Shown here piece after piece: positions 4,427 to 60,620 of a stretch of DNA of 64,000 nt (its first letter is position 1; each line of letters starts with the position of its first letter). The translations under genes were made by a program, and so were the position numbers. Below the pieces are notes generated by a model. That model did no database searches. It saw only the letters and a program-made list of their open reading frames with translations, and was not told where the DNA came from. The DNA comes from an uncultured Actinomycetes bacterium (lineage in GTDB: Bacteria; Actinomycetota; Thermoleophilia; UBA2241), in NCBI GenBank assembly GCA_963755025.1, contig CAVWIH010000026.1:40775-104774 (forward strand), in the 5' to 3' direction.

Positions 4427-4639
4427 CTTGAACCCCCCAGTCCTGGACCCGATTGACCCTGCTCGAGTCGGCCCCTGCCTCAGAGAGATCCTGAAGCGAA
4501 AGGCCCTACGATAATGACCATCTTATGTGAGCAGGGAGCGCGGGCGCCAGCGGTCGCCCGGCGGGCCTGACGCACCGGCTCGACAAGCCCATCGCGCCGG
4601 CCGTATCGTGGAAGGCCTGCTACGAAAGGCGTGTCTGGC

Positions 4640-9948: not shown

Positions 9949-10299
9949 CTACTTCAGCCCGAGCGACACCTTGAGCGCCTGATCGACCGCCGCCATCGTG
10001 GGGCCGGACAGCGTTGCGAGCCTGTCTTCGAGCCAGGCGCTGGGCACTGTGCTGATGGTCTCGCAGTGGACGACGGCGGCCTGGCCGGGCTCGGCGGCCG
10101 CCAGCCTGACGAGGAAGGGGTAGTCGGGCCGCGGAGCGGTGGAGACGAGCGCCACGATGGTGCTCGGCGACGAACGGTTGCCGACGTCGTTCTGCACGAT
10201 GAGCGCCGGACGGCGCCCCACGGGCGCCGGGAATGTGACCCAATAGACGTCGCCGCGCGCGGGCGCTGCCCGAGGCGCGGCCGGGGCGGCCGGAGTCAC
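9949..10299 (-). CDS. mazF: PemK/MazF-family toxin (endoribonuclease)
   Basis: RGDVYWV...RRPALIVQNDVGN...TIVALVS motifs. Confidence 0.9.
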   Translation of the reverse strand: MTPAAPAAPRAAPARGDVYWVTFPAPVGRRPALIVQNDVGNRSSPSTIVALVSTAPRPDYPFLVRLAAAEPGQAAVVHCETISTVPSAWLEDRLATLSGPTMAAVDQALKVSLGLK

Positions 10300-10381
10300 T
10301 CGAGGCCCACTCGCACGGGCGCGCCGTACGGGCGCGTGTCTGGTACGACGGGCGGGGCTTTGACCGGCGGAGCGGCCGGCA

Positions 10382-10624
10382 TCATTCGGGGAACGCTCGG
10401 ACGGCGACGTTCGCGAGCGCCGCGACGACGTCGAGCTGGCTGGCTCCGACGTCGGCGTAGCCCTGCGCCAGGCGTTCGGCCAGCAGATGGTCGCGCAACA
10501 GATCGAGAGCTTCGATCACGATCTGCGTTTTGCTTTCGTGGCGATCGGCGGCGAGCTGCGTGAGGAAGGCGTTGGCGGTGTCGGGCAGACGCACCTGCAC
10601 CGGCGTGGTAGCGACACGAGACAT
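10382..10624 (-). CDS. Ribbon-helix-helix antitoxin (MazE/NdoAI-like)
   Basis: VQVRLPD...ESKTQIVIEAL...LAQGYAD; directly upstream of the toxin. Confidence 0.75.
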   Translation of the reverse strand: MSRVATTPVQVRLPDTANAFLTQLAADRHESKTQIVIEALDLLRDHLLAERLAQGYADVGASQLDVVAALANVAVRAFPE

Positions 10625-10676
10625 GAGCCGACTCCATTCTTCATGACCACAAGTATCAGTCGGCCGCGTGCCGCCT

Positions 10677-10730
10677 GCAAGCATTGTGCACCGCACGTCT
10701 GCATGTCTTCAACCATGCAAAGATGCTTGC
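10677..10730 (-). promoter_or_regulatory. Palindromic operator/promoter of the TA operon
   Basis: GCAAGCAT...ATGCTTGC and TGCATG...CATGCA inverted repeats overlapping TTGAAG-N18-CACAAT (minus strand). Confidence 0.5.
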
Positions 10731-10872
10731 GAGAAGCGGCGCGCGACGGGCGGGAGCGCTTGCACCAGGCCCCGTCACGACCGGCAGAACGGCCCCGACG
10801 CCCGATCGACGGCTCGGGCGAGCCCTTCTGTTAGATTCTGATAGAATCCGACACTCCCGATTTGGAGCGGTC

Positions 10873-11888
<1,016 letters not shown>

Positions 11889-11892
<4 letters not shown>

Positions 11893-14201
11893 GCGCCGCC
11901 GGCTGGCTGTTCGAGATCGGCGTCGAAGAGCTGCCCTACAAGACCTGTCAGTCGGTCCTTGCGCAGCTGCAGGGCAAGGCCACGGCCGAGTCGCCGGGCA
12001 TGGTCTACGAGGCGCTCGCCGCCGCGCGCCTGCTGGGCGACGGCGGCGCGGCGGCCGACCGCGCCACCGACCCCGCCGGCTTCGCCGAGGCGCGCCTGAA
12101 GGTGATGATCGCGCCGCGGCGCATCGCCGTGTGGGTCAAGAACGTGCCGCGCGAGCAGACCGCCCAGACGCTGCGCCACCGCGGCCCACTCGCCAAGGTC
12201 GCCTTTGGCCCCGACGGCGCGCCGACCAAGGCCGGCGAGGGCTTTGCCCGCGGCAAGGGCATCAAGCCCGGGCAGCTCGTGCGCGAGACGGTCGACGGCA
12301 ACGAGTTCGTGGTCGCCGTGGTCGAAGCCGAGCGCCTGCCCGCCGAGCGCGTGCTGCCCGACATCTGCCGGCGCCTCATCACCGGCCTGCAGATCCCGCG
12401 CGGCATGCGCTGGGGCGCGCGCCCGGCCGGCGCCGACGACTACCTGCGCTTCTCGCGTCCCATCCGCTGGCTGGTCTGCATCTTCGCCGGCCAGCCCGTG
12501 CCCTTCGACTTTTACGACCTGCGCGCCGGCGCGGTCACGCAGGGCCACCGCGTGCTCGGCCGGCCGCTGATCGTCGACCACGCCAGCCACTACGAGCGCC
12601 ACCTGCGCGAGCAGCACGTGATCGCCGACCATAACGAGCGCCGCCGCCTTATCGTCGAGGGCCTGCACGCGGCCGCCGGCCGGCTCGGCGGGCGCTGGTC
12701 CGACCCGGCCGGCGTGCTCGAAGAGAACATCTACCTGGCCGAGTGGCCCAGCGTGCACTCCGGCGCCTTCGACGAGCGCCACCTGCGCCTGCCGAGCGAG
12801 GTCCTGATCACCGCCATGCAGGCCCACCAGCGCTACTGCCCGGTCGAAGACGCGCCGGCGAGCTGCGCCCCGCCTTTCTCTACGTCTCCAACGCCGACCC
12901 GGCTGCCGCCGCGCTCATCACGCACGGCAACGAGCGCGTGCTCGAGGGCCGCCTGGCCGACGCCGAGTTCAGCTACGACCGCGACCTGGCCGAAGGGCTC
13001 GAGGCCATGGCCGGCCGCCTGGGCGAGGTCGTCTTTCACGCCAAGCTGGGCTCGCTCGCCGACAAGTCGGCGCGCATGGTGGCCCTCACGCAGTGGCTGG
13101 CCGGCGTGGTCACCGCGCGCGACGGCGGCCGGCCGCGCGCTCGCCGCAGCCGCCGACACCGCCGCCGCGGTCGCCGCGGCCGCCGACCAGGGCCTCACCG
13201 TGCGCGTCACCGACGAGCTCGCCGCCGCCGTGATCGCCGCCAAGTTCGCCAAGGCCGACCTGGTCAGCCAGGTCGTCATCGAGTTTCCCAGCCTGCAGGG
13301 CCGCGTGGGCGGCCACTACGCCGACAAGGCCGGCGCCGCGCCGGCCGTCGCTCAGGCGATCGCCGACCACTACCAGCCGCTCTCGGCCGTGGCGCCGCTG
13401 CCCGGCAGCCTGGCCGGCAGCCTGGTGGCCGTCGCCGACAAGATCGACAACATCGCGGGCGCCTGGCTGGCCGGCAACAAGCCGTCGGGCTCGCGCGACC
13501 CCTACGGCCTGCGGCGCGCCGCCATGGGCATCGTGCGCATCGCCTTAGAGCACGACCTGCGGGTCTCGCCGCGCACCCTTGCCGCGGCGGCCGTGCGCGT
13601 CTACGCGCAGCCCGCCGACGCGACCAAGGCGGTGCTGCCCTCGAAGGCGTCGGGCCCCGACCCCGAGGGCGCCATCGCGGCCTTCATCTGGGAGCGCCTC
13701 GAAGCGTTGCTGCTCGACGAAGGCCTGCCCTTCGCGCTGGTCGAAGCGGCGCTGGGCGCCGCCGCCCAGGGCGCCGACCTGTCGCGCGTGGCCGCGCTCG
13801 CGCGCACCTTCGCGCGCGTCGAACACGAAGCGTTCTTCAACGACCTCGTGGTGGCCTTCTCGCGCCCGGCGGCCCTGGCCGCCAAAGCCGAGGCCGAGCC
13901 CGGCGGCGTGGCCGCCGCGCCCGACCCTGCGCTGTTCGCAGACGAGGCCGAGCACGCCCTGGCCGCCGCGCTCACCGAGGTGCGCGGCCCCATCGGCACG
14001 GCGCTGGCCGGCGGCGACATCGAGGCGGCGCTCTGCGCCGCCGCCGCCCTGCGCGCCCCGGTCGACCGCTACTTCGAGGCCGTCCTGGTCATGGACAACG
14101 ACCCCGCCGTGCGCGCGAATCGACTCGCGCAGCTGCGGCAGGTAACCTTCCTGCTCGGCGGCCTCGGCGATCTCGCCCGGCTGCCCGTTCAGCAAAGTTG
14201 A
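11889..14201 (+). CDS. glyS: Glycine--tRNA ligase beta subunit (compensating frameshifts ~12850-13135)
   Basis: [26 protein letters not shown]..Vx[16 protein letters not shown]; [13 protein letters not shown] lies in the alternate frame. Confidence 0.93.
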
Positions 14202-14400
14202 CGAGCGTTCCGTCACAGTCGACGAACGCCCGCGTATGAGAAGGCGAGCGCCTCGTCCCATCCGGCGCGCGCTCGCGTTGCACAAACACGAAAGGTGAAC
14301 ACTGCTTCCCAGGCGCAAGGCAAGCCGCGCCTGGGCCGATGAATGCCGACGGGGAGAACGAGACAGCCCCGGGACCGTGGTGCTCCAGGAGGAAGAATCG

Positions 14401-20204: not shown

Positions 20205-20293
20205 GCGCGAGAGCTCAGGTCGCAGGCCACGACCGCACACCGCAGGCAGGATCGCCCGGCCGCACACGAGGTTAGAAGGCAGTGAGGAGAACG

Positions 20294-21412
<1,119 letters not shown>

Positions 21413-22115: not shown

Positions 22116-22191
<76 letters not shown>

Positions 22192-22259: not shown

Positions 22260-22423
22260 GCGCTCCGGTCGTATTCCGACTCCTCAGGCGTCCCGCGCGA
22301 CGATAGGGCCGCCCGCGGGCGCCGGCTGGCGACGCGCTGAGGTCGTCGCTGCAGATCCCACCAATGAGCTTCGTCTTGCCGCCACGCGCGGACTGCCGAT
22401 GGCCGGAGGCGGCCACGTCGTTG

Positions 22424-23164
22424 CTATGGGGACGGCGGCGCTTCGAATCTCGTCGTCAGTGACGTAGCCGCCATGGCCGCGACGAGCCTGTCGTAGTCGT
22501 ACGGCACGCGCACGAATTCGGCCAACGTCTCGCCCGTTTCGAGCCTCTCAGGTTGCACGATGGCATAACACACACGCCAGTCACCGTCCTTGGGCCTCCC
22601 GCCGCTGCCCACATTGACGAAGGCCGTGCCGTCGACCTCGCGGACGTAGGGGATGTGGGTGTGGCCAAAGATGATCGCCCGATACGGGTTCGCCGCAGCC
22701 AGGCGGGCAAGGCTGGTCTGCGGGCGATCCTCGAAGAGGTACTCGTTGATACGCCGCGGGCTGCCATGCACGGCGAGCAGCTCGCCGGCGGGCGTCTCCA
22801 GCACGAAACGATCCACGAGGGTGCGCAGGTAGGCGCGCGTCTCGGGGTTCGTCGTCTGCTCGGTCCAGGCGAGCGAAGCGGCGCCCTCGGCGCGCTGCTC
22901 GTCGGTCTTATAGGCGCAGCCGCAGTCGCCGGTCTCGAAACCGATGCCCTGGTCGTAGTTGCCCATCACGGTGGGGATGGCGCGATCGCGCACCAGTTGG
23001 GCGACCTCGTTGGGAGAGGGACCGTAGCCCACGAGGTCGCCGAGGCAGAGCACGTCGGGCACACCTCGTCGATCGACATCGGCGAGGATGGCCTCGAGGC
23101 CGGGGAGGTTGCCGTGCACGTCGGAGAACACCGCGATCGGCCCGTTCATCGTCAGTCGCTTCAT
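22424..23164 (-). CDS. Calcineurin-like metallophosphoesterase
   Basis: SDVHGN, LGDLVGYG, MGNYD, GHTH motifs; extra DCGCAY motif. Confidence 0.88.
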   Translation of the reverse strand: MKRLTMNGPIAVFSDVHGNLPGLEAILADVDRRGVPDVLCLGDLVGYGPSPNEVAQLVRDRAIPTVMGNYDQGIGFETGDCGCAYKTDEQRAEGAASLAWTEQTTNPETRAYLRTLVDRFVLETPAGELLAVHGSPRRINEYLFEDRPQTSLARLAAANPYRAIIFGHTHIPYVREVDGTAFVNVGSGGRPKDGDWRVCYAIVQPERLETGETLAEFVRVPYDYDRLVAAMAATSLTTRFEAPPSP

Positions 23165-23171
23165 GGCACAC

Positions 23172-23607
23172 TCACCGCGCGGCCAGCTCGTCGAGCCATT
23201 CGCGGATACGCATCTCGATGGCGTCGCGGACCTCACGATAGACCGGCAGACGTTCGTCGTGGTCGCCCTGGACGGCGTCCGGATCGGCAAACGGCCAGTG
23301 CAGCCGCGTCCCCATCCCGGGGAACGTCTTGGGACACTCGCGGTTGGCGCGCTCGCAGACCGTGATCACATAAGCCGAAGTGGAGCTTGCCGAGGTACTC
23401 GGCGAGGTCCTTGGCGCGCGCGCCGCTAATGTCGATGCCGCGCTCGGCCATGGCCTCGATGGCGAGGGGGTCGACGGTGGTCGCCTCGAGGCCGGCGCTG
23501 AACGCCTCGAAGCGATCGGGCGCCAGCTCACGCAGGAACGCCTCGGCCATCTGACTGCGGCAACTGTTGTGGACGCACATGAACAGCACCCTGGTCTTGT
23601 TGTCCAA
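23172..23607 (-). CDS. arsC: LMW-PTP-type arsenate reductase (one frameshift ~23375)
   Basis: FMCVHNSCRSQMAE P-loop; YVITVC...CP..HWPFADP in the second frame; RBS GAGGAGG before TTG. Confidence 0.88.
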
Positions 23608-23680
23608 GACCGCCTCCTCCTCGACGAGTCGATGTCGCAGACTACCCGGCTTGTGTCAGGAAACGATGAGCTCGCCAATC

Positions 23681-23721
23681 ATAAACGCACGTTGACCATA
23701 AAGCGAAGTGTATGCGATAAT
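23681..23721 (+). promoter_or_regulatory. acr3 promoter overlapped by two ArsR-type operator-like sites
   Basis: TTGACC-N18-GATAAT overlapping ATAAA-N6-TTGAC (23681-23696) and ATAAA-N6-TGTAT (23698-23713). Confidence 0.55.
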
Positions 23722-23762
23722 CAGGGACGCCAAACCGCTTGGATCTCGGGAGAAGACACCGC

Positions 23763-24953
23763 ATGGTGACCATAGCCAAGAAGCGCCTCTCGTTCCTCGA
23801 CCGCTACCTGACGGCCTGGATCTTCCTGGCCATGGCGATCGGCGTGTTTTTGGGCTGGGCCTTTGCCGGCGTGCCCGCCTTCATCGACCGCTTCAACTCG
23901 GGCACGACCAACATCCCCATCGCCATCGGTCTGATCGTCATGATGTATCCGCCGCTTGCCCGGGTGCGCTACGAGGAGCTCGGCGACGTCTTTCGCGACT
24001 ACCGCATCCTTGGTCTCTCGCTCGTGCAGAACTGGGTGATCGGCCCGTTCCTCATGTTCTTCCTGGCGATCATCTTTCTGCACAGCTACCCGCAGTACAT
24101 GGTCGGTCTCATCATGATCGGCTTGGCGCGCTGCATCGCCATGGTCATCGTCTGGAACCAGCTCGCCGACGGCGACACCGAGTACGCCGCCGGACTGGTG
24201 GCCTTCAACGCCGTCTTCCAGGTGCTCTTCTACAGCCTCTTCGCCTGGGTCTTCGTGACTAAACTGCCGCCGCTGTTCGGCTTGCACGGCGCGGCGGTCG
24301 ACGTCTCGATCGGCCAGATCGCAAAGAGCGTCTTCATCTACCTCGGCATCCCGTTCCTGGCCGGTATGCTGACGCGCTACCTCGGGCTCAAGTACAAGGG
24401 CCGTGAGTGGTACGAGAAGACGTTCATCCCGCGCATCAGCCCGCTGACACTGATCGCCCTGCTGTTCACGATCGTCGTCATGTTCAGCCTTAAGGGGCAT
24501 CTCATCGTCAAACTGCCGCTCGACGTCGTGCGCATCGCCATCCCCCTGCTCATCTACTTCGTCGTCATGTTCTTCGTGAGCTTCTACCTGGGCCGCAAGA
24601 TCGGCGCCGACTACTCGAAGACCGCGACGTTGTCGTTCACGGCGGCCAGCAACAACTTCGAGCTGGCGATCGCCGTGAGTATCGCCGTGTTCGGCATCGG
24701 TTCGGGGGTGGCCTTCGCGGCCGTCATCGGGCCCCTCGTCGAGGTGCCGGTGATGATCGGCCTGGTCAACGTGGCACTATGGATGGGGCGCAGGTACTGG
24801 GGCCTGAGCGATCAGCCCCTGCCGGCCGCGCTCGCGGCCGCACGCGACGAGGTCGCCTGCGAGCCCCAGAAAGAACACGATCGCCCTGGCGTGCAGGCGG
24901 CCACAGATGCGCCCGCACAGCCTCGGCCTACAGCTAACCCGGAGGCAAGATGA
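23763..24953 (+). CDS. acr3: ACR3-family arsenite efflux transporter
   Basis: [44 protein letters not shown]. Confidence 0.96.
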
Positions 24954-25348
24954 ACGTCGTCAAGAACGTTGTCAAAGAGCCCGCGACGCCCGACAGCCTT
25001 GTCGATGTGGTGCCGTTCTTCAAGGTGTTCTGCCACCCGACGCGCGCCCAGATCATCGACTTCCTGCTGAGCGGCGAACGCTGCGTCTGTGAGATGACCG
25101 GGCCGCTCGACCAGAGCCAGCCCCTGGTCTCGCACCACCTCGCCCTGCTGCGCGACGCCGGCATCGTGCGCATGCGCAGCGAGGGCGCGCGTACCTACTA
25201 CTCCATCGACTGGGAGCGGTTCGACGGCGAGCTCAAGGGCTTCCTCGACTACGTCGCGCAGCGGCGCAGCGCGCCGCACCCCGCGAGCGAGACCCGCAGC
25301 GCCTGCGCGGTCGCCGCCAAGCCGGCGAAAAGGCGCAACGCCTCATGA
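24950..25348 (+). CDS. arsR: ArsR/SmtB-family metalloregulator
   Basis: [15 protein letters not shown]...[16 protein letters not shown] wHTH with CVC metal site; ATGA overlap with acr3. Confidence 0.9.
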
Positions 25349-26641
25349 CGACAGGAAGAGAGTGGGCCATGGCAGACGACGCGACAGGTGTGAAGGAAAC
25401 CGACGAGCAAGGTCCGGGAGGCGGCGCCTGCTGTAGTTCGTCGCCGGCCTCCGGCGGATCGTGCTGCGGTAGCACCGTGAAGCCTGTCACGGCGAGCTCG
25501 CAGAGCGCCTGCTGTGGCGCGCCGACCAAACGGCCGCCACAGGAGCGCCGGCAAAGCTCCTGCTGCGGCGCACCGGCGACGCCCCCGGCCGACTACCCCT
25601 ACGGCCCCGCTGCCTACGTCGTCGGCGCCACCGAGACGCCGGTCGGCGCCGTCCCCCGGGTGTCTCGCGAGGTCGCTCGCGGCGATCGCCTGGGCGCCTG
25701 GCGGGTGCGCTGGGGCTTCGGGCGCGACGACTACCGGGTGAAGCCGGGCCTGTACGCCGTGGGAGCACCGGACGCCGCCGCGCCTGTGCTGGTCACCGCC
25801 AACTACAAGCTCACCTTCGACGCGCTGCGCTCGTCGCTCGCCGATCTCGACGCCTGGCTGCTGGTCGCAGACACGCGCGGCATCAACGTCTGGTGCGCGG
25901 CCGGCAAGGGCACCTTCTGCGCCGACGAGGTCGCGCGCGTGGTCCACGAGACGCGACTCGCCGAGGTCGTCGCGCACCGGCGCCTCGTGCTGCCGCAGCT
26001 TGCGGCGCCGGGAGTCGCCGCTCACCAGGTCAAAGAAGCCTGTGGCTTTCGGGTGACCTTCGGGCCGGTGCGGGCCGCCGACCTGCCGGCCTTTCTGGCC
26101 GCCGGCATGAAGGCCGACTCGCGCATGCGCGCCGTCACCTTCGATGCCCGAGAGCGCGCCGTGCTCGCGCCCGCAGAGCTGCAGGTCGCCTGGGACCGCC
26201 GCATGATGCTGGCTTACGCCGGCATCCTGGCCGTCTCGGCGATCGGCCGCGACGGCGTCTCGCTCGGCCGGGCCGCGCGCCGCGGCGCGCCGGTGGTCGG
26301 CGCCGCCTGGCTTGCCCTGCTGGCGGGTGGCGCCGTAACGCCGCTCGCCCTGCCCTGGTTGCCCGGCCGCGCCTTCTCCGCGAAAGGCGCTGTGGCCGGA
26401 GGCGTGGCGGCGGTGGGTGCCACGGCGGCTGTTTCGCCATCGGCTCTCGCCGGCCGCAAAGCTCGCCCTGCTGGCCGGCGTGCCGGCCGTCTCCTCCTAT
26501 GCCGCCATGAACTTCACCGGCTCCTCGCCGATCACCTCGCCATCGGGCGTCGAGCTCGAGATGCGCCGGGCGCTGCCTTGGCAGGTCGCGGCATCGGTCG
26601 TTGCTGCCGGCGCCTGGCTTGCCAGCAGAGCGGGAAGGTGA
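25345..26641 (+). CDS. hgcA: Mercury methylation corrinoid protein HgcA (one frameshift ~26430-26450; alternative start 25369)
   Basis: VTANYKLTFD and cap helix GINVWCAAGKGTF; TM region; C-terminal MNFTGSSPITSPSGVELEMRRALP in frame 26417..26641. Confidence 0.93.
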
Positions 26642-26646
26642 GTGCG

Positions 26647-26924
26647 ATGCCGAAGCTACGCTACATCGACCAGGCCGTCACCCTGCGAACTCGACGCCGG
26701 ACTGTTGCAACGGTTGTGGACTGTGCGTAGCCGTCTGTCCGCGTGCCGTGTTCGCGCTCGTGAACGGCCGCGCTTCGCTGGCGGACCGAGGCGCCTGCAT
26801 CGAGTGCGGCGCCTGCGCCCTCAACTGCGTGTCGGGCGCCATCAGCGTCGATCCCGGCGTAGGCTGTGCACAGGCGATCATTCACGGCTGGCTGACCGGC
26901 GGCGAGCCGAGTTGCGATTGCTAA
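26647..26924 (+). CDS. hgcB: Mercury methylation ferredoxin HgcB (frameshift near 5' end)
   Basis: MPKLRYID...; CNGCGLCVAVCP and CIECGACALNC; GVGCA and terminal SCDC; directly after hgcA. Confidence 0.9.
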
Positions 26925-27087
26925 GGCGATCGACGAGGCTCCGGCGTGCTCTGAGCTCGGAGCACGACCTCTGAGGCTGGGGCCGGGTCGGCTTTCCGTC
27001 AGACCGCCCCGCGCGACAATGGGGCCGTGAACCGGTCGCGGCCATCCGGGGCTGGGCGTGGCGTCCTACAACGCAGGAGGGGAGAAC

Positions 27088-27934
27088 ATGGGGCCCGAAT
27101 GGAAGCTCTACGAGCGACTGCTCGCTGAACTGCCCGACGACGAGCAGGTACGCGCCTGCCTCGTGGGCAGCGCCTGGACGCTGGTCGAGGCTGCAGGGGT
27201 GGGCATGGCGATGTCGTTCCACGACGGTACCTGGCTGTCGTGCCCCACGTCGCCGATCGCCGGTCGGCCACTCGCCGAGGTGGCCGGCCAGCTGACGAGC
27301 TGGAACCTGATCGAGGCCGCCATCGGCCTGGCCGCCCTGAACGCGCACTACAACTACAGGGAGCGCGTCGAGCACTGGCTGGGCCGGCGCATCGGCGACA
27401 GCGAGGACAGCCCCGTCTTTCGCTCGCTGGAAGACGAGCTCGCGGGCACGAAGGTGGGCGTGATTGGCCACTTCCCCGGTCTCGAGCGTCTCGCCGCCCG
27501 TTGCGAGCTCACGGTCTTCGAACGCCGCCCGCAGCCAGGCGATCTGCCCGACTACGCCGAGGACTACCTGCTGCCCTCCATGGACTGGGTGCTCATCACC
27601 GGCACGGCGTTGACGAACAAGACCCTGCCCCACCTGCTCGACATCACGAGCAAGGCGCGTGTGGTGCTGGTCGGCCCGAGCGTGCCGCTCACGCCGCTGT
27701 GGTTCGAGCTCGGCGTCCACATGTTGGCCGGGAGCGTCGTGACGGACCGGGAGCGGCTGTGGCCCGTCGTGCAGGAGGGCTCCTGCTTCGAGGTGTTCAG
27801 GAACGGGGTCGCGAGGATCCAGGTCGCCGTGGACGACCTGCCCGGCGGTCGCGAGGGCGTAGCCCGGGCGGGGTCGACGTGCAGGGTCCGAGGCCGTGGG
27901 TGCGCTGCGATCAGAAAGCCGCGCTCCGTGGCGC

Positions 27935-27957
<23 letters not shown>
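27088..27957 (+). CDS. DUF364/DUF4213 Rossmann-like protein (putative heavy-metal chelation family)
   Basis: SWNLIEAAIGLAALNA, KVGVIGHFP, ITGTALTNKTL, LVGPSVP; AGGAGG RBS. Confidence 0.8.
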
Positions 27958-29383
<1,426 letters not shown>

Positions 29384-29412
<29 letters not shown>

Positions 29413-31094
29413 CGGAGACCTCCAGCTCGGGGTAGACGGGCTGCCACATCGCTTCCTGGACGGCTTCGACTGGATCGGAGAGCTTCGCCCGCGCGACGCC
29501 CTCGGCGGCGGCCTGTCTCGCGACCGCGACGGCTACGGTAGCCGAAGCGGCTCGCAGGTTCTCGACGGCGGGCAACAGGCCCGCGCCGGGCCGGCTCACA
29601 TCGACCAGTCCGGCGATCGCCTCGGCGGCAGTGAGCAGCATGGCGTCGCTGACACCCCTGGCGCGAGAGACGATCGTGCCAAGGCCGATGCCGGGGTAGA
29701 CCAGGGCGTTGTTGGCCTGCCCTATGCGATAGTCGGTGCCTTTGAACGAGACCGGCTCCCAGGGGGTGCCGGTCGCCACCGAGACCGCGGCCCTCGGTCC
29801 AGCGGATCACATCGGCCGGTACGGCCTCGATCCGCTCGGTCGGGTTCGACATAGGAAAGATCATCGGCCGGTCGACGTGCTTGGCCATCTCGCGCAGGAT
29901 CGGTTCGGTGAAGGCACCGCCGACGGTCGAGGTGCCGACGATGATCGTCGGACGGACCTCGCCACGACCTCGCGAGATCCGATCGCGTCGTCGCGCCCAT
30001 TGCGCTCCAGCCGGCCACCTCCGGCCGCGCGGTCGCGCGTAGGGCTTTTGGAAGTCTCGCAGGTCCGTCATGTCGTCGACCAGCAATCCCTGCTTGTCGA
30101 CGCACCAGAACTGCGCGGTTGCGGCATCGATGCGGTCAGGCCGTCGTTGACCATGATGACCCGGATCTGATCGGCGATGCCGATGCCGGCCGTGCCCGAA
30201 CCGAAGATGACGACTCGCTGCTCGCTCGGGGCGGTTCCAGCCACACGCAGGCCGGCCAGTGCGGCGGCGAGGATGATCGCACCGGTTCCTTGGATATCGT
30301 CGTTGAAGACGGGAGCAGTGTCCCGGTACTTGTTCAGGATGCGCCTCGCGTTGGAAGGTCCGAAGTCCTCGAAGTGCAAGAGGGCCTTCGGGAACCGACT
30401 GCCTGGCCGTCTTGACGTAGCCGTCGATGAACGCGTCGTAGCGTGGGCCGCGCACCCGACTGTGGTGATTGCCGACGTACAGTGGATCGTTGAGTAGCGA
30501 CTCGCGGTCGGTGCCTACATCGAGCATCACCGGGATCACGCGTTCGGGGTCTATGCCGGCCGCCGCCGTGTAGACCGCGAGCTTGCCGATCGAGATGGCC
30601 ATGCCGTTGGCGCCCCAGTCGCCGATCCCGAGGATCTCTTCGGCGTCGGTGGCGACCAGCAGGTCGACGTCGTCGGCGCCGAGCCCGTAGTTGCGAAAGG
30701 CGGTCTCGATGCCGGCGTCGTCGTCGATGGAGAGGTAGACCCCGCTGGGTCGGCGGTACTCGTGGCTCAGGCGCTCTATCGCCTGGGCGATCACGGGATC
30801 GTACACGACTGGCAGCATCTCGGTGAGATGGTCGGCCAGCAGCTTGTAGTAGAGGACCTGATTGCGCTCCTCGAGGGCGGCCAGAAAGGTGTTGCGCGCC
30901 AGGTCGTCGGGCTGAGCCCGATACTGCGCGTAGGAGCGCTTCGCCTGCTCTTCCAGGGTGAGGACCGCTGCGGGCAACAACCCGTCCAGGCCCAGGACAG
31001 TGCGCTCCTCGTCAGTGAACGCCGTCCCGCGATTGAAGCGCGAGTCGTGCAGCAGAGCCCGTCCGCTGGAAAGCTTCGTCGGTTTCGTCGACAT
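29384..31094 (-). CDS. maeA: NAD-dependent malic enzyme, frameshifted
   Basis: [45 protein letters not shown]. Confidence 0.88.
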
Positions 31095-31192
31095 GGTGGC
31101 CCACTCCCTTGGGCGCCACCCTGCGGCACTTCACGTGGCCGCCCGTCGTGGTCTTTTGGGATTTTCGGTCTGGGTACCCAGACGGGCACGCC

Positions 31193-37231: not shown

Positions 37232-37870
37232 ATGGATCGCAAGTTCGGGCGGCGGCTGGCCGTACTCGTCGCCGTGGCGACGATCACGCTCCTGCTCGGG
37301 GCTGCGCCTGCCTGGGCTCACGAAGCGCGCGACGTGGGCGCCTACCACTTTCTGGTGGGCTGGGGTAGCGAGCCCGCGTTCGTCGGACAGGAGAACAGCA
37401 TCCAGCTCGTCCTCACCGACCGCGCGACCGGCAAGCCGGTGCTGAACCTCGGCACCCTCAAGGTAACGGCCGTCTTTGGCTCGCAGACCATGGTGTTCGC
37501 ACTCGAGCCGACGTTCGACCCGGACACCGGCCTGGGCACGCCCGGCGACTATCGCGCCTGGCTGTTCCCCACGGCGCCGGGCGACTACACGTTCCACTTC
37601 ACCGGCACGATCGGATCGCAGAAGGTCGATCAGAGCTTTACGAGCGGCCCCACCACGTTCAACCCGGTACAAGACCCCACGACGGTCGAGTTTCCGCTGC
37701 AGATGCCGACCATGACCGAGCTCTCGCAGCGGGTCAGCGTTGCGCTGCCGCGTCTGGCGAGCTCCTCGCAAAGCTCACGCGCACAGCTGTTCGGCATCGT
37801 CGGCATGGTCGTCGGCGCGCTTGGCCTGGCCGTCGCGGTCGTCGCGCTCGCCACCAGCAGAAGAGCCTGA
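37232..37870 (+). CDS. Secreted, C-terminally anchored protein with a predicted mature N-terminal His (possible copper binding)
   Basis: Signal peptide ending AWA-H; VGW..EPA; C-terminal TM helix. Confidence 0.7.
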   Translation: MDRKFGRRLAVLVAVATITLLLGAAPAWAHEARDVGAYHFLVGWGSEPAFVGQENSIQLVLTDRATGKPVLNLGTLKVTAVFGSQTMVFALEPTFDPDTGLGTPGDYRAWLFPTAPGDYTFHFTGTIGSQKVDQSFTSGPTTFNPVQDPTTVEFPLQMPTMTELSQRVSVALPRLASSSQSSRAQLFGIVGMVVGALGLAVAVVALATSRRA

Positions 37871-37877
37871 GGTCGGG

Positions 37878-39545
37878 GTGCGCGGCCGGGCCGCGGTGGC
37901 TCTTCGCGTCGGTGCGCTCGCCGTGCTGCTCGCGGTCGGCTGGCTTGCGCTACGCCCGCCCCCGGCCACGGCGCACGCCCTGCTGATCCGCGCGGTCCCG
38001 GCCGTCAACGGCACGGTAGCGACGTCGCCGACAGAGCTCTTGCTGACCTTCACCGAGCCGGTCGACCCGACCCTGTCACACGTGCAGGTGGTCGACACGC
38101 GCGGGCGGGCGGTCCCCGGCGTACTCCCGTCGCGGGCCGTGCCCGGCGACGCGCAGCAGCTCCGGGTGCCACTGGCCCGCGCCCTGCCTCACGGCGTCTA
38201 CACGGTCGATTGGCAGACGGTCTCAGCGCTCGACGGTCACCTCGCCGGGGGCGCCTACGCCTTCGGGGTCGGCGTCGCCAACGTCGGCGCCGTGGCGCCC
38301 TTCGGCAAGTACGTGCGCACCTCCCGCTGGTTGACGGGGACCGCCGCGGCGGGCCGCTGGTCGCTGTGGACGGGGCTCGTCTTGTTGTTTGGTGCGGCCT
38401 GTGTGTGTCTGATCGTGTGGCGAGGCTCGCTGCCGGCCGGTGGCGGAGCGCTCCTCGGGCTGGGCTGGCTGCTCGCCGCGGTGGGCGTGTCGACCGTCAT
38501 CCTCACCGAGCGCGCCATCGTACGGGCGCCATCGCTGCTGCCGCTCTTCGAGACGCACGAGGGGATGGTGCTGCTCGGACAGGGCGCGGCCGTGCTCGTC
38601 GCCTGCGGCCTTGCCGTGTACGCGGTGAACGCGCTGCCGCGGAGCGCCACGCTGGTCGGGCTCGCCGCCGCGGCCGCCGTGGCTATGCTGTCCGTCGTCT
38701 GGGGGAGCCACGCCAACGGCGTCTCCGTCTACCGGCCGGTCGACCTTACCTTGCAGTGGCTGCACGTCGTCGCCGTCGGCGCCTGGATCGGCGGACTGGC
38801 CTGGCTCCTGCTCGGGCTGCGGGGGCTGGGACGATCCGACCGGGCCGCCGCCGCCCGCCGCTTCTCGGCCGTCGCCACGGTGAGTCTGGGCGTGGTCCTG
38901 CTCACCGGCCTCGCGCGGGCCGTGGCCGAGGTCGGCACCCTGGCGAATCTTGTGCACACGAGCTTTGGGACGCTTCTCCTCGTCAAACTGGCGCTGTTCT
39001 GCGTGCTGATCGCGCTCGGAGCTCGCAACCACTTCGTGCTCGTCCCTGCCCAGGCGCGCGACGACGCGGCGGCTCCCTTTCGACGCACGCTACGCGGCGA
39101 GCTGGTCCTGGGGGTGGGCATCATCGCCGTGACGGGCGTGCTCGGCGGGCTCGCCCCGGCGACGTTCAGCGCCGCGGCGGCCAAGGCTGCGGCCTCGAGC
39201 CGTGTCGTGCTGGCGGGCAGCGACTACGCCACGACGGTCCGCGTGCGACTCGTCGTCAGCCCCGGGACCGTCGGTTCCAACCAGTTCACCGCGACCGTCG
39301 ACGAGTACGCGACGGGGCGGCCGCTGAGCGGAGTGCGCAGCGTCGACCTTGGCTTCTCCCTACCGGGCCAGGTCGTGGTGCAGCCCTCGTCGCTGGCCCT
39401 CGGCGGAGGCCCGGGCGGCGTCTGGCGAGGGTCCGGGCTCGAGCTTTCGGTCGAGGGGCGCTGGAACGTCCGCGTGTTGGTCGAGCAGGCGACGTCGGCG
39501 GTCGAGGTGCCGCTCGTGATCGACGTCGCCCGGCCGGGCGGGTAG
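37878..39545 (+). CDS. CopC-CopD fusion copper resistance/uptake protein (YcnJ-like)
   Basis: ATA-HALL..P; WQTVSALDGH; LH..AVGAWIGGL; RRFS CopD motifs. Confidence 0.85.
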   Translation: MRGRAAVALRVGALAVLLAVGWLALRPPPATAHALLIRAVPAVNGTVATSPTELLLTFTEPVDPTLSHVQVVDTRGRAVPGVLPSRAVPGDAQQLRVPLARALPHGVYTVDWQTVSALDGHLAGGAYAFGVGVANVGAVAPFGKYVRTSRWLTGTAAAGRWSLWTGLVLLFGAACVCLIVWRGSLPAGGGALLGLGWLLAAVGVSTVILTERAIVRAPSLLPLFETHEGMVLLGQGAAVLVACGLAVYAVNALPRSATLVGLAAAAAVAMLSVVWGSHANGVSVYRPVDLTLQWLHVVAVGAWIGGLAWLLLGLRGLGRSDRAAAARRFSAVATVSLGVVLLTGLARAVAEVGTLANLVHTSFGTLLLVKLALFCVLIALGARNHFVLVPAQARDDAAAPFRRTLRGELVLGVGIIAVTGVLGGLAPATFSAAAAKAAASSRVVLAGSDYATTVRVRLVVSPGTVGSNQFTATVDEYATGRPLSGVRSVDLGFSLPGQVVVQPSSLALGGGPGGVWRGSGLELSVEGRWNVRVLVEQATSAVEVPLVIDVARPGG

Positions 39546-40755: not shown

Positions 40756-41525
40756 GCGCGACGATCTGCCTGCGCGGCGTCGCCAAGCGCTACGAGACCG
40801 GTCGCGACCGACCTGTCGAAGCCTTGCGCGCGATCGACCTCGACATCGATCGGGGGGAGTTCGTCGTCGTCACCGGTCGTTCGGGGGCGGGCAAGACCAC
40901 CCTGCTCAACGTGGTCGCCGGCCTCGCGCGACCGACCAGCGGCACGGTCACGGTCGACGGGGTCGACCTCTGGCAGCTTTCCGACCGGCGACTCTCGCGC
41001 CTGCGCAACCGGCGCATGGGCTGCGTCTTTCAGTTTCCCAGCCTGCTGGCATCGCTGCCCGTCCTGCAAAACGTGCTGCTACCGCTCTCGTTTGCCGGCG
41101 CCGCAGACGGCGCTGGGCGAGCGCGGGCCGTCGAGCTGCTGACCATGGTCGGTCTCGGTGACAGGCTGACGGCGTATCCGCGGCAACTGTCGGCGGGCCA
41201 GCAGCAGCGCGTCGTCGTCGCCCGGGCGCTCGTCAACCGTCCCGCGCTGTTGCTGGCCGACGAACCAAGTAGCGACCTCGACGAGGGGACCGAGGCCGAG
41301 ATCATGGACCTGTTCCGCCGCGTGCACGCGGAGACCGGCGTGACGATCGCCCTGGTCACCCACACCACGCAGCTCGTCGCTTACGGCACGCGCCACATCG
41401 CCATGGCGGAGGGGGCGATCGCCGCCGCCGCATGTCCTGGGGGCGGCGCGCGCCTGCCGGGCGCGGCCGACGCGCCGGCCGATGTCCGTTGGGCCTCGCC
41501 TGCGGGGAAGACTGCAGACCTATGA
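40752..41525 (+). CDS. ABC transporter ATP-binding protein (LolD-like)
   Basis: GRSGAGKTT, LSAGQQQR, LLADEP; ATGA overlap with the permease. Confidence 0.92.
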   Translation: MSATICLRGVAKRYETGRDRPVEALRAIDLDIDRGEFVVVTGRSGAGKTTLLNVVAGLARPTSGTVTVDGVDLWQLSDRRLSRLRNRRMGCVFQFPSLLASLPVLQNVLLPLSFAGAADGAGRARAVELLTMVGLGDRLTAYPRQLSAGQQQRVVVARALVNRPALLLADEPSSDLDEGTEAEIMDLFRRVHAETGVTIALVTHTTQLVAYGTRHIAMAEGAIAAAACPGGGARLPGAADAPADVRWASPAGKTADL

Positions 41526-42351
41526 TCGCCTACATCACCATCAATATCGACCCCATCATCGGCCACCTCGGTCCCTTCGCCGTGCGCTGGTATCCGCTGA
41601 TCATGGTCCTCGGGGTCATCGTCGGCGCCTTCATCTTCGCCGGTCAGCTGCGCCGTAAGGGCATCGAGTCGGGGCACGTGACCGCCATGCTCGCCGTCGT
41701 CGTGCCCAGTGCGATCGTCGGCGCCCGCCTCTTCAGCGTGCTCGACAACTGGAGCTACTACTCGCACCACCTGCTCGCCATCGTCAAACCGCCCTACGTG
41801 GGCCTGGCGATCTACGGCGTGCTCACCGGCGGCCTGCTCGCCCTGGCCATCTACTGCCGCGTGAAGAAGCTCCCCGTGCTGCGCGTGCTGGACTGCCTCG
41901 CCCTGGCCATCCCGGTCGGCCAGATCATCGGTCGATGCGCCAACATCATCAACGGCGACACCTGGGGCTCGCCCACACGGCTGCCGTGGGGCTTTGTCTA
42001 CACCAATCCGCACGCCTGCTGCCGGCCGACCTGCTCGGCGTGCCGACGCACCCCACGCCGGTCTACGAGCAGCTCTGGCTGGCAGTCATGGTCGCCATCC
42101 TCTGGTATGCCGTGCCACGACTGAAGACCGACGGCATGGCCATACTGCTCTATCTCGGTCTCTACTCGTTCGGCCGCTTCTTCATCTCGTTCTACCGGGT
42201 CAACAACATCATCGTGCTCGGCCTGAGGGAGGCGCAGATCGTCGCCCTGGTCGTGCTCGTGGCGGTGGGACCGGCGGCGTGGCTGCTGCGCCGCCGCGCC
42301 CGGCGAGCGGGTGCCGCGGCAGCCCCCACACAACGGCGACGCGCCGCCTGA
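41522..42351 (+). CDS. lgt: Prolipoprotein diacylglyceryl transferase (frameshift ~42015)
   Basis: VRWY, IVGARL, GLAIYG, GQIIGRCANIINGD, HPTPVYE. Confidence 0.85.
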
Positions 42352-42384: not shown

Positions 42385-43863
42385 CTATCGCACCGCGACG
42401 CCCTTCTCGGCGGCTGCGGCGGCGATGACGTTTTCGATGTGCTGGGCGGCGCCGTCGGGCAGCGGCAGGGGGTGGTGGGTGGCGAGGATCTCGTCGACCC
42501 TGTCGGTGACGCGTTGCGCTTCGGATCTGCCCTCGGCCACCCAGCCGTCGTACGAGCCGCGCACGAAGAGCTGCGGCAGCTGCAGCTCGCCGCTGCGCAG
42601 GAAGCGGCGCGTCTCGCGGGCGGCCAGGAAGTGGCCGCCCGGCCCCACCCGCGCCGTGACGTCGAACATGACGTGCTCGTCGTCGAAGGCGACGCCGGCC
42701 ATGAGGCGCTGGCCCTGGCGGATGAGCTCGGCGTCGAGCAGCATCTTGGGCAGGTAGAGCAGCTGGGCCGAGTCGAGCATGCCGACGCCGGTCAGCAGGT
42801 CGGCTCCGGCGAGCATGGTGCAGTACGCCATCGGCGCGCCGTCGGAGCCGACCTGCACGCAGAGCTCCTTGGCGTCTGACGACAGGCCGCAGGAGAGCAC
42901 CGGCACGCCGTAGTGGCGCCCCATCTCGGTGAGCGCCAGGTTGAGCAGGACCTCTTCGGGGCCGGCCGAGGTGTAGGTCGAGGTGCGCATGTCCATGATG
43001 CCGGCGTTGCCCACGTAGATCAGCGGGCAGCCCGGCACGGCGAGCTGCAGGATGGCGAAGGCGGCCAGGCCCTCGGCGTTGGTCTGCACGGCGGTGCCGG
43101 CCAGGGTGAGCGGCGCGGTGGCGCCGGCCATGGCCAGGCTGTAGACGGTGATGGGCACGCCCTGCTCGGCGAGCAGGATGGCCGCCTCGAGGCTGTCGGC
43201 GTCGTGCTGCAGCGGGCTCACCGGGCAGTAGACGATCGAGAAGATGGGGCGCTCGGGCCGCCACACGCCGCCCGGGCTCGCGGCCGCGAGGATCTCCATG
43301 ACGTAGGGCACGTCGGCGGGGTCGGTGACCTCGCCCTGCACGTGCTTGGCGCTGCCGGTGAGCATGGCCTGCAGGCCGCGCAGCGACTGCAGGTCGGGCT
43401 CTTCGTCGCAGGGGTAGGCGGTGTACCAGAGCACGCCGACCTCGTCGAGCGCGTCGGCGACGGTCATGGCCTCGCGCAGGTCGCGGGCCGTCGAGGGGCG
43501 CCGCTCGCCGGTACGGTGGTCGAGGCACATGGCGCCCATGCCGTCGTGGGTGGCCCAGGTGCGCGTGTGGTCGAGCAGCGCGTCCTTTTCGGGGTCGCGC
43601 GCGGCCAGCAGCACGTGCTGGGGGGCGCGGGCGAGGGCCGACTCGACGAGCTCGCGCGGCAGGCGCACGATCTGCGTCTCTTCGTCGACCGCGGCGCCCG
43701 CGTCGCGCAGCAGCGCCTGGGCGCGGGCCAGCGGCACGCGCACGCCGACCTCGGCGAGCAGCCGCAGCGACTGCGCGTGCACGTAGTCGATGGCCGCTTC
43801 GTCGAGCATGCTCAGTCGCGGGCGCAGCACGCCGGCGAAGCCGCCGCCCGTCGGGGAGCTCAT
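42385..43863 (-). CDS. MttB-superfamily methyltransferase, non-pyrrolysine
   Basis: LAARDP, SPLQ, MAGATAPLTLAG, DMRT, SDAK, VGPGGHFL; no in-frame amber codon. Confidence 0.88.
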   Translation of the reverse strand: MSSPTGGGFAGVLRPRLSMLDEAAIDYVHAQSLRLLAEVGVRVPLARAQALLRDAGAAVDEETQIVRLPRELVESALARAPQHVLLAARDPEKDALLDHTRTWATHDGMGAMCLDHRTGERRPSTARDLREAMTVADALDEVGVLWYTAYPCDEEPDLQSLRGLQAMLTGSAKHVQGEVTDPADVPYVMEILAAASPGGVWRPERPIFSIVYCPVSPLQHDADSLEAAILLAEQGVPITVYSLAMAGATAPLTLAGTAVQTNAEGLAAFAILQLAVPGCPLIYVGNAGIMDMRTSTYTSAGPEEVLLNLALTEMGRHYGVPVLSCGLSSDAKELCVQVGSDGAPMAYCTMLAGADLLTGVGMLDSAQLLYLPKMLLDAELIRQGQRLMAGVAFDDEHVMFDVTARVGPGGHFLAARETRRFLRSGELQLPQLFVRGSYDGWVAEGRSEAQRVTDRVDEILATHHPLPLPDGAAQHIENVIAAAAAEKGVAVR

Positions 43864-44020
43864 GCGAGCACCAGGCCGAAGCCGCCGCTGCGCGGCCGGC
43901 CGGCGAACAGGTTCCGTTTCACGCGGTGACCTCCGTTCGGGGAGCGAGCATACCGGCGACCGCGTGGGGCGGGGCCGGTGACTGCGCTGATTAAGTCAGT
44001 CGGATGAATCATTCTGTGGT

Positions 44021-47338: not shown

Positions 47339-47516
47339 CCCGAAGGGCCGCAACGACAGGCGGAGGCGAGTAGCCCGAGGGGCTCGGCGCCGACGGGCGG
47401 CGGGTTGCCACGGCGCCGGAGGCGTGGCCCGAGGGGCCGCGACGGACCAGTCGCCCGGCCGGCGCGGGACACGCCGTCACGTTGTCGGCGGCGCGGCGGC
47501 GCGTATATGATTCGTG

Positions 47517-47620
47517 GTGCTGCACACATGGCTCGGCGCGGCCTTTCCGGTCGGCGCCGCAGCGGCCATGAGCCCCCAGCGAGCGCACACGGCGCGTCTC
47601 TGGGGGCGTTCTTGCTTTTC
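47517..47620 (+). promoter_or_regulatory. Structured 5' leader with terminator hairpin, copy B
   Basis: Follows TTGTCG-N18-TATGAT; GCCCCCAG...CTGGGGGC followed by GTTCTTGCTTTTC. Confidence 0.6.
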
Positions 47621-47687
47621 GGGGGCGCCGGACGCGCGATGGCGAGCAAGAGCGCGGCCGGTCGCCGGTCGCGACGAGGAGGAGCGC

Positions 47688-58077: not shown

Positions 58078-58271
58078 CGTCGTCAGGCAGGAGTGTATCA
58101 GCGTCGGCCCGGAGGGGCCGACCACGGCCCGCGAGTGCGCCGTCGCCTTCGGCGGTGTAGGCTCGGCACTGATGGCCGCGCGGCGTGGACCGCTCCGGCC
58201 ATGCCCGCGGACGGCGCAGTCGTCACGAGCAGGGCCGTGGGCGCGGCGAACGTTCCAACGAGAGGGGCCGG

Positions 58272-60108: not shown

Positions 60109-60610
60109 ATGCCCCACGTCATGATCGCACGCAAGAAGTGCACCGCCTGCCACATGTGCGAGTTGGCCTGCTCGCTCTACCACGAAGGCGCCTACCGGCC
60201 GTCGCTGGCCCGGCTGCGCTCCGAGTGCAACCCCACGACGACCGAGATCAAGGGCTTCACCTGCCTGCAGACGGGCTGCGCCAAGTGCCAGAAGGCGTGT
60301 CCTGCCGGCGCCATCACCACCAGGGCGGTCCCGCTCAAGCTCGACGGCGCCTTCGACAGCGCCGCCAGGTTCGAGGGGCGTCGCGCAAGGCCATGTGTTG
60401 ATCGTCGATGAGGACAAGTGCACGAACTGTGGCGACTGCTACGACGTCTGCCCCTACGGCGTGATCCACGAGCACCCCGAGCGCAAGGTCGCCTTCAAGT
60501 GCGACCTGTGCGACGGCACGCCGCAGTGCATCGTCTTCTGCCAGAACCCGCACGTGCTGGCCGTCGACCTCAAGCTCGACAAGGCCGACCGGCCGCCAAG
60601 ACCGGAGTAG
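60109..60610 (+). CDS. 4Fe-4S dicluster protein partnered with AOR (frameshift ~60385)
   Basis: CTACHMCELAC, CQKACP, CTNCGDCYDVCP, KCDLCDGTPQC. Confidence 0.85.
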
Positions 60611-60620
60611 CAGACCCGCC

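Follow-up and report, generated by a model that had tools for sequence, protein, structure and literature searches.

An arsenic-resistance locus with the mercury-methylation genes hgcA and hgcB in a probable Thermoleophilia-type actinobacterium

Genes for mercury methylation that lie directly behind an arsenite pump and an ArsR repressor raise the question of whether they are chance neighbors of an arsenic-resistance cluster or a part of it, switched on together with it by arsenite. We addressed this question in a 64,000-nucleotide (nt) stretch of DNA from an uncultured Actinomycetes bacterium (assembly GCA_963755025.1, contig CAVWIH010000026.1, positions 40,775 to 104,774 of the forward strand; hereafter the window), in which hgcA and hgcB follow acr3 and arsR. 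We consider it probable that this is an arsenic-resistance locus of a Thermoleophilia-type actinobacterium that includes hgcAB, that it would act as an arsenite-derepressed unit, and that the breaks in its reading frames are artefactual. The gene content and the actinobacterial host are the parts of this explanation that we hold with high confidence. The features of the locus are as follows.

22424 to 23164, minus strand: metallophosphoesterase, calcineurin-like (YfcE-type), with its ATG at 23164 and Pfam domains PF12850 and PF00149.
23172 to 23607, minus strand: arsC, thioredoxin-type arsenate reductase (low-molecular-weight phosphatase fold), matched by pieces of TIGR02691 and by PF01451, in two frames.
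23692 to 23721, plus strand: promoter-like site TTGACC-18-GATAAT upstream of acr3, with TG before the -10 element.
23763 to 24953, plus strand: acr3, arsenite efflux permease (TIGR00832, PF01758), the first plus-strand gene, with no frame break.
24950 to 25348, plus strand: arsR, ArsR/SmtB repressor (NF033788), with Cys-Val-Cys at the alpha-3 position, unbroken.
25369 to 26641, plus strand: hgcA, corrinoid protein for mercury methylation (NF040863), with the cap helix at 25885-25908 and a membrane domain.
26647 to 26924, plus strand: hgcB, 2x[4Fe-4S] ferredoxin (NF040864), with the frame shifted twice.

The identities given to acr3, arsR, hgcA, hgcB, and arsC in a first-pass annotation of this DNA hold, with family profile scores above cutoff for the first three. 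Acr3 scored 455.9 bits on TIGR00832 (cutoff 282.8), covering profile positions 1-327 of 327, and ArsR reached 81.9 bits against the NF033788 cutoff of 55. On the minus strand, arsC starts at a TTG (23607) behind a GAGGAGG ribosome site and stops at 23172, in agreement with its annotation as a divergent gene. The intergenic region between arsC and acr3 measures 155 nt (23608-23762). The ATG of the metallophosphoesterase gene lies 7 nt past the arsC stop, co-directional with arsC, and the arsenic unit should be extended to this gene (22424-23164, minus).

The plus-strand genes are closely packed. The acr3 stop and the arsR start overlap by 4 nt as ATGA (24950-24953), the arsR stop is separated by 20 nt from the hgcA ATG (25369), which has an AGGAAG-type ribosome site ahead of it, and the hgcB ATG (26647) follows the hgcA stop (26639-26641) by 5 nt, the spacing that had been reported. 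A purine-rich ribosome site precedes each start in this unit. The first-pass annotation had joined acr3, arsR, and hgcA by ATGA overlaps. This is correct for acr3 and arsR; an ATGA is also present at the arsR-hgcA junction (25345-25348), but it is probably not the hgcA start. Since seven homologues in the HgcA alignment (P0001, P0002, P0003, P0005, P0009, P0011, and P0039) begin at the column of ATG 25369, this codon, not the ATGA at 25345, is the likely start. With its single promoter-like site, the packing of the plus-strand genes appears operon-like.

HgcA scored 343.3 bits on NF040863 (cutoff 275) with its first frame piece alone (25345-26460; profile 1-255 of 325). The second piece (26417-26641), in another frame, added 60.9 bits over profile positions 264-323, corresponding to the C-terminal membrane domain. 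The NVWCAAGK cap helix named in the first-pass annotation was located at 25885-25908, and its columns were invariant in 21 of 21 aligned sequences. The cap-helix motif N(V/I)WCA(A/G)GK includes the cobalt-ligating Cys. The model for HgcAB-like fusion paralogues, NF043039, gave 202.9 bits, below its cutoff of 285, so that the protein belongs to the true HgcA family; hgcB forms a separate cistron. The N-terminal arm of HgcA is Cys-rich, with four Cys-Cys pairs.

For HgcB, the 3' piece alone scored 94.3 bits on NF040864 (cutoff 99), without the first 11 profile positions, and the N-terminus lies in two other frames. Both CX2CX2CX3C cluster motifs are present in the translation of 26706-26921. The protein ends in Cys-Asp-Cys (26913-26921), not Cys-Cys, and the same end, with or without a final Gly, was found in all five close homologues fetched (P0241, P0242, P0243, P0256, and P0307). 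Nearly all HgcB members are described with Cys-Cys as their last two residues (10.1101/2022.07.06.499078). The Cys-Asp-Cys end thus reads as a clade variant, in which the two terminal cysteines stand one residue apart. HgcAB of the window is predicted to methylate mercury.

The host was placed by two proteins. The window RpoD (20282-21412) has an identity of 100% to P0121, 91% to P0134, and 86% to a protein named Thermoleophilia RpoD. Searches for related loci matched at least 596 stretches, at least 594 of which represent relatives, and the best 80 were kept (L001 to L080). The HgcA proteins of the six nearest loci (L001 to L006) are 65-77% identical to that of the window, and their genomes bear the titles Thermoleophilia, Actinomycetes, or Actinomycetota. 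A quick maximum-likelihood tree built from 81 HgcA domains grouped these six loci with the window in a clade of seven (SH-aLRT, the approximate likelihood-ratio branch support, 100) inside a supported set of eleven (97), which adds Coriobacteriia, Anaerosomatales, another Actinomycetota, and one Acidobacteriota row. The first-pass annotation had suggested a probable actinobacterial host and had proposed an HgcA profile search and a phylogeny as checks. The fully supported Actinomycetota clade and the RpoD identity of 86% to the named Thermoleophilia protein both agree with that suggestion.

Whether these genes are functional depends on how their frame breaks are read. Two frameshifts had been annotated, a count that proved too low: we found four single extra bases in three genes, located near 23371-23373 in arsC, at 26428 in hgcA, and at 26686 and 26705 in hgcB. 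The arsC gene matches TIGR02691 over profile positions 1-62 (63.9 bits) and 72-128 (48.7 bits) in two frames, and the split leaves each piece short of the 174.3 cutoff; the frame switch is visible in the plot of third-position GC (GC3). The public protein P0065 (311 residues) is unbroken and matches the window HgcA in frame 1 up to 26428 and in frame 2 from 26429 at 100% (70/70). The identity on both sides of the break indicates one extra G at 26428. The hgcB frame consists of MPKLRYIDQAVTL (26647-26685), ELDAGL (26687-26704), and the piece from 26706. These 13, 6, and 72 residues sum to 91, the length of close homologues (e.g., P0241), with which they are colinear.

The rest of the window is affected in the same way. 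We segmented it by GC3, scanned 79 frame pieces against Pfam, and found one Pfam family split over different frames in seven genes outside the locus, a minimum for the window. The split genes lie in the following intervals.

11841-14236
27567-31130
41273-42348
47511-48920
58173-60078
60465-61409

The profile of glyS is matched at 2-287, then at 286-371, and then back again, and that of lgt at 1-153 and 153-233. Fumarase and aldehyde:ferredoxin oxidoreductase each extend over three frames, a ThiF-family gene is in three pieces, and malic enzyme and acyl-CoA dehydrogenase are also frame-split. The whole window is thus indel-rich, as expected of an unpolished long-read consensus. As glyS encodes an essential tRNA synthetase, decay into pseudogenes is not a tenable account of both glyS and lgt, and the indels are therefore a property of the assembly.

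If the breaks were real instead, arsC, hgcA, and hgcB would be decaying pseudogenes and acr3-arsR alone would still be working. The distribution of the breaks fits such a history, in that all four fall within these three genes and none within acr3 and arsR (1.6 kb), and in the public proteins P0012 and P0120, from other genomes, HgcA likewise leaves its frame and continues into HgcB. Against it stand the split genes elsewhere in the window, with glyS and lgt among them, and the intact, identical P0065 across the hgcA break. On both sides of each break GC3 is high and the residues are homologous, with no stop-rich decay, and in the long-contig relatives L002 and L004 the Acr3 or HgcB matches are split as well, in keeping with an error tied to the technology. 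The first-pass annotation had named real frameshifts as the finding that would overturn it; on this evidence we regard gene decay as very improbable. For hgcB (best cluster representative 97%) and arsC, the searches turned up no intact copy of identical sequence, so that for these two genes the reading as consensus errors relies on the window-wide pattern. Overall, the breaks in arsC, hgcA, and hgcB are very likely consensus errors of the assembly and not gene decay.

P0012 (511 residues) and P0120 (492 residues) consist of HgcA that, after a +1 shift like those of the window, is read out of frame across its membrane domain and on into hgcB, and these entries could pass for natural HgcA-HgcB fusions. 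In this high-GC clade, indels in long-read assemblies disrupt hgcA and hgcB or create false fusions of this kind, and can thereby distort surveys of hgcAB.

We next considered whether the arrangement is kept in relatives. The 80 loci were probed by tblastn with nine window protein pieces, and some open reading frames (ORFs) were checked by NCBIfam; as only the window's proteins served as probes, the counts of ArsR-family genes and acr3 are lower bounds. Among the six nearest loci, four carry acr3 and arsR beside hgcAB and three keep the order of the window: in L001, L002, and L004, a divergent metallophosphoesterase gene is followed by acr3, arsR, hgcA, and hgcB. In L005, acr3 is divergent and an ArsR-family gene precedes hgcA. 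No arsC was found at the window's position in any of the six. L004 encodes ArsA (756.5 bits, cutoff 650) and ArsD (127.9 bits, cutoff 90) between the phosphoesterase and acr3, with ArsD fused to an AhpD domain, and L001 and L002 have an MTH895/ArsE thioredoxin-like gene between arsR and hgcA.

Across the 80 loci, hgcA has an ArsR-family gene within 600 nt in 18 cases (16 on the same strand by tblastn, L034 divergent, and L005 by ORF reading), and acr3 lies within 4 kb in eight (L001, L002, L004, L005, L023, L034, L051, and L056). In this screen the remaining 62 loci show neither within these distances, although eight of them offer less than 600 nt of upstream sequence and cannot be judged. On the HgcA tree, acr3 linkage needs at least five changes. 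The gene order differs among the Thermoleophilia, Bacillota, and Syntrophorhabdus in which it occurs, the Syntrophorhabdus genome having a divergent arrangement.

The metallophosphoesterase has 70-73% protein identity to its counterparts in L001, L002, and L004, next to or near the module, and 47% to that of L019 (Coriobacteriia), just upstream of arsR-hgcA. The gene is divergent from acr3 in L001 and L002 and stands behind arsD-arsA in L004. Its TIGR00040 score of 43.7 is below the cutoff of 56.25. The copies are located as follows.

L001, 3022-3756: metallophosphoesterase
L002, 7389-8114: metallophosphoesterase
L004, 5199-5933: metallophosphoesterase
L019, 8825-9409: metallophosphoesterase

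This gene travels with the ars-hgcAB module.

The control of the unit was examined in the region upstream of acr3. The site TTGACC-18-GATAAT is the only sigma-70-like site in 22300-28200 (5.9 kb), compared with 0.3 ± 0.5 in shuffled sequences, and the consensus scan of the same region detected no terminator-like site. In an alignment of upstream regions, the -35 block TTGACCAT was invariant in the window, L001, L002, and L004. The three relatives carry TTGAC-N11-GTCAA across the -35 element and the spacer, a clearer dyad than that of the window. Of the operator-like sites that had been described at the acr3 promoter, the promoter-like site stands, while operator symmetry in the window is weak. 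An operator is plausible by homology with the relatives. In an alignment with SmtB chain 1r1t_A, the Cys-Val-Cys of ArsR falls on the alpha-3 Cys region, and the same Cys pair is present in ArsR of L001, L002, and L004. In Escherichia coli ArsR, alpha-3 cysteines form the site, and two suffice for arsenic binding (10.1101/2022.10.17.512643). Arsenite induction is plausible because the window ArsR has this Cys-x-Cys pair at the alpha-3 position.

Several other candidate elements were discarded. A 15-nt direct repeat (23686 and 23760, 13/15), considered as an operator, is not conserved in relatives. A terminator after hgcB was not found by the scan, and the fold of 26920-27060 was no better than that of shuffles (z -1.39). 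Riboswitch or leader control of hgcA found no support, as the locus contains no Rfam element; only tRNA-Asn, outside it, reaches the gathering score. The sub-threshold matches were unconvincing: an L31-Actinobacteria leader at 26979-27041 on the minus strand (32.9 versus 35), near which there is no L31 gene, and NiCo (19.6 versus 37).

We propose that one sigma-70-type promoter upstream of acr3 would drive an acr3-arsR-hgcA-hgcB transcript, with arsC and the metallophosphoesterase gene read divergently from the same intergenic region. ArsR, through its alpha-3 Cys-x-Cys arsenite site, would sit on the promoter region and be released by As(III), upon which the cell would produce HgcA and HgcB along with the arsenite pump. 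The spacings of -4, 20, and 5 nt, the one promoter-like site, and the lack of a terminator-like site in the scan suggest a single plus-strand transcript, and the ArsR-controlled, arsenic-responsive hgcAB of Pseudodesulfovibrio mercurii ND132 provides a precedent for the mechanism. Co-transcription, ArsR binding at the acr3 promoter, and arsenite induction are here deduced from sequence, and on this basis a single arsenite-derepressed transcript seems rather likely.

Alternatively, the genes might be neighbors without being co-regulated: hgcAB would have its own promoter inside or after arsR, constitutive or responding to another signal, with no arsenite control. Several observations weigh against our proposal and in part favor this alternative. 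Actinobacterial promoters often fit the consensus poorly, and weak or non-sigma-70 promoters are invisible to a consensus scan. Promoters inside acr3 or arsR are accordingly possible and may have been missed by it. The right dyad arm in the window is degenerate (GTGTA), the repeat search found no inverted repeat in the acr3/arsC intergenic region, and the dyad scan returned only arms with five of six positions. The window ArsR has two alpha-3 cysteines, not three. Two of the six nearest loci, L003 and L006, have hgcAB with no ars gene nearby, which indicates that the ars link is not obligatory, and we know of no actinobacterial methylator tested in culture. In ND132, methylation was poorly predicted by how strongly hgcAB was transcribed, and S-adenosylhomocysteine also affected expression (10.1101/2022.10.17.512643). 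Against separate regulation stand an arsR-hgcA gap of only 20 nt behind two genes that share 4 nt, and the order acr3-arsR-(arsE)-hgcA-hgcB and the promoter core, both kept in three relatives at 72-75% HgcA identity. In lake metatranscriptomes, moreover, an arsR-like gene upstream went with lower hgcA/gyrB ratios (PMC11984097). We thus consider an independent, arsenite-insensitive promoter for hgcAB unlikely, and continue with the arsenite-derepressed unit as the preferred reading.

Much of the background to this reading is already published: hgcA has been described in actinobacteria, ars genes have been described beside hgcAB, and so has control of hgcAB by ArsR. McDaniel et al. (2020) listed 17 hgcA+ Actinobacteria, including four Thermoleophilia, and described hgcAB flanked by acr3, arsC, arsM, and arsR in diverse phyla (PMC7438021). 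Lake genomes carry acr3/arsC beside arsR-hgcA, with lower hgcA expression where arsR is present (PMC11984097), and arsA and arsD occur near hgcAB (PMC10349881). The first-pass annotation was right that ars linkage is known in deltaproteobacterial methylators, but the published range is wider, and the novelty of the linkage was overstated. A literature search on hgcA in Thermoleophilia returned only the article of McDaniel et al. and its preprint, and one on arsenite-linked, co-transcribed hgcAB since 2021 gave the ND132 study as the sole relevant result. The available text, figures and supplements apart, contained no description of the exact clade-wide module. The neighborhoods in PMC7438021 resemble the window in combining Thermoleophilia hgcAB with flanking acr3 and arsC; relative to the available text of that article, the present analysis adds a conserved promoter core and the variants with arsD-arsA or arsE.

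Among the closest known systems is arsR2-hgcA-hgcB of ND132 (Gionfriddo et al., 10.1101/2022.10.17.512643), where, as in the window, an ArsR-family gene lies directly upstream of hgcAB. In ND132, arsR2 is co-transcribed with hgcAB, expression is arsenic-responsive, and hgcAB is under ArsR control (10.1101/2022.10.17.512643). No other ars gene is co-located in ND132, and the site of ArsR2 consists of four cysteines that lie elsewhere than at alpha-3 (10.1101/2022.10.17.512643). The window differs in having an ArsR with alpha-3 Cys-x-Cys behind acr3 in one unit, and a divergent arsC. Both regulator types occur among the related loci: an ND132-like four-Cys ArsR precedes hgcA in L012, L026, L066, L068, and L071, and an alpha-3-type ArsR precedes it in actinobacterial and Bacillota loci. 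The Bacillota cluster arsR-hgcA-hgcB-acr3-arsC (L023 and L056; L051 partial) shares with the window the same five families and the alpha-3 Cys-x-Cys ArsR. It is co-directional and reversed in order, with the regulator first and the pump and reductase after hgcB. Because its HgcA is on a distant branch of the tree, the genes probably came together independently in Bacillota. Ordinary ars operons (arsR, acr3, and arsC, with or without arsD-arsA) have, like the window, a repressor, a pump, a reductase, and a divergent promoter region, and L004 has their full arsD-arsA set. To these the window adds the hgcA and hgcB cistrons and a conserved metallophosphoesterase gene on the divergent side.

The arrangement could also reflect a role in arsenic handling itself. 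In this case, hgcAB of the Thermoleophilia clade would be a structural part of the ars operon and a working arsenic-resistance component, selected for arsenic handling, and mercury methylation would be a side reaction or by-product. The function may be, for example, a corrinoid-dependent methyl transfer to arsenic species held by the Cys-rich N-terminal arm. The four Cys-Cys pairs of the arm would suit such a role, and hgcAB does lie within varied, genuine ars clusters, with arsC in the window, arsD-arsA in L004, and arsE in L001 and L002. The acr3 linkage, with its five or more changes on the HgcA tree, involves three lineages with differing gene orders, and knocking out hgcAB made ND132 more sensitive to As(V) (10.1101/2022.10.17.512643). 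The same knockout, however, matched the wild type in As(III) resistance, and ND132 cultures were reported without detectable mono- or dimethylarsenicals (10.1101/2022.10.17.512643). The Cys-rich arm is a general feature of HgcA in different phyla, often as Cys-Sec, and not specific to ars-linked copies (10.1101/2022.07.06.499078); it is likewise widespread across phyla in the 80 related loci. Finally, the 62 loci described above that show neither an ArsR-family gene nor acr3 near hgcA argue against this reading. We regard selection of hgcAB for arsenic resistance as improbable, and retain the arsenic-resistance locus that includes mercury-methylation genes as our explanation.

The flanks of the window are not syntenic with L002 or L004, which indicates that the module does move. 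It lies about 230 nt after a tRNA-Asn gene (22116-22191), and in L006 a tRNA-Phe gene is just upstream. A 23-nt direct repeat (22289-22311 and 27005-27027; 20/23) brackets the block from the phosphoesterase gene to hgcB, which is suggestive of an insertion and may be chance. A genomic-island reading was not adopted, as the repeat match does not extend and similar repeats abound in GC-rich DNA; we treated it as chance, and no att site was shown for the module. Carriage on plasmids found no support in a tblastn search of HgcA against 72,556 plasmid records, which returned no match at E 1e-10. A DUF4213/DUF364 'putative heavy-metal chelation' gene (27058-27957, plus) starts 134 nt after hgcB. It was rejected as a member of the unit, since tblastn found it in none of the 80 related loci.

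In related hgcA loci we observed an in-frame TGA beside a Cys codon where other HgcA proteins, that of the window included, have Cys-Cys. It occurs in 17 or 18 of the 80 loci. The TGA lies about 105-111 codons before the cap helix in the following loci.

L021, L028, L030, L034, L038, L039, L042, L045, L055
L059, L060, L063, L069, L074, L075, L076, L080

The TGA follows the Cys codon except in L063, where it precedes it, and a comparable site in L078 stands 123 codons ahead of the cap helix. Among the in-frame stops listed 75-125 codons before the cap helix, 20 of 25 are TGA. This is not a new feature, as a Cys-Sec motif has been described in the N-terminal extension of HgcA (10.1101/2022.07.06.499078).

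Among other genes of the window, an unbroken MttB-family (corrinoid-dependent) methyltransferase gene (42388-43995, minus) lies 15 kb from hgcAB. In L006 (about 4480-5960 and 10482-11694), MttB-like ORFs recognized by eye lie 1.3-3 kb downstream of hgcB, and a stretch about 73% DNA-identical to the window's MttB-family gene lies about 7.5 kb downstream of hgcB. The window further encodes a MazF/PemK-like toxin domain (9952-10515, minus) and a CopC-CopD copper-resistance fusion (37716-39542, plus).

Of the published clues to what HgcAB does natively, arsenic is the leading one. The clade described here offers a cleaner natural case than ND132, with a classical arsenite-sensing regulator, a unit shared with the pump, and clear ars neighbors in several relatives. 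If arsenite switches on hgcAB in these organisms, arsenic load could influence the methylmercury potential of soils and sediments in which such actinobacteria live.

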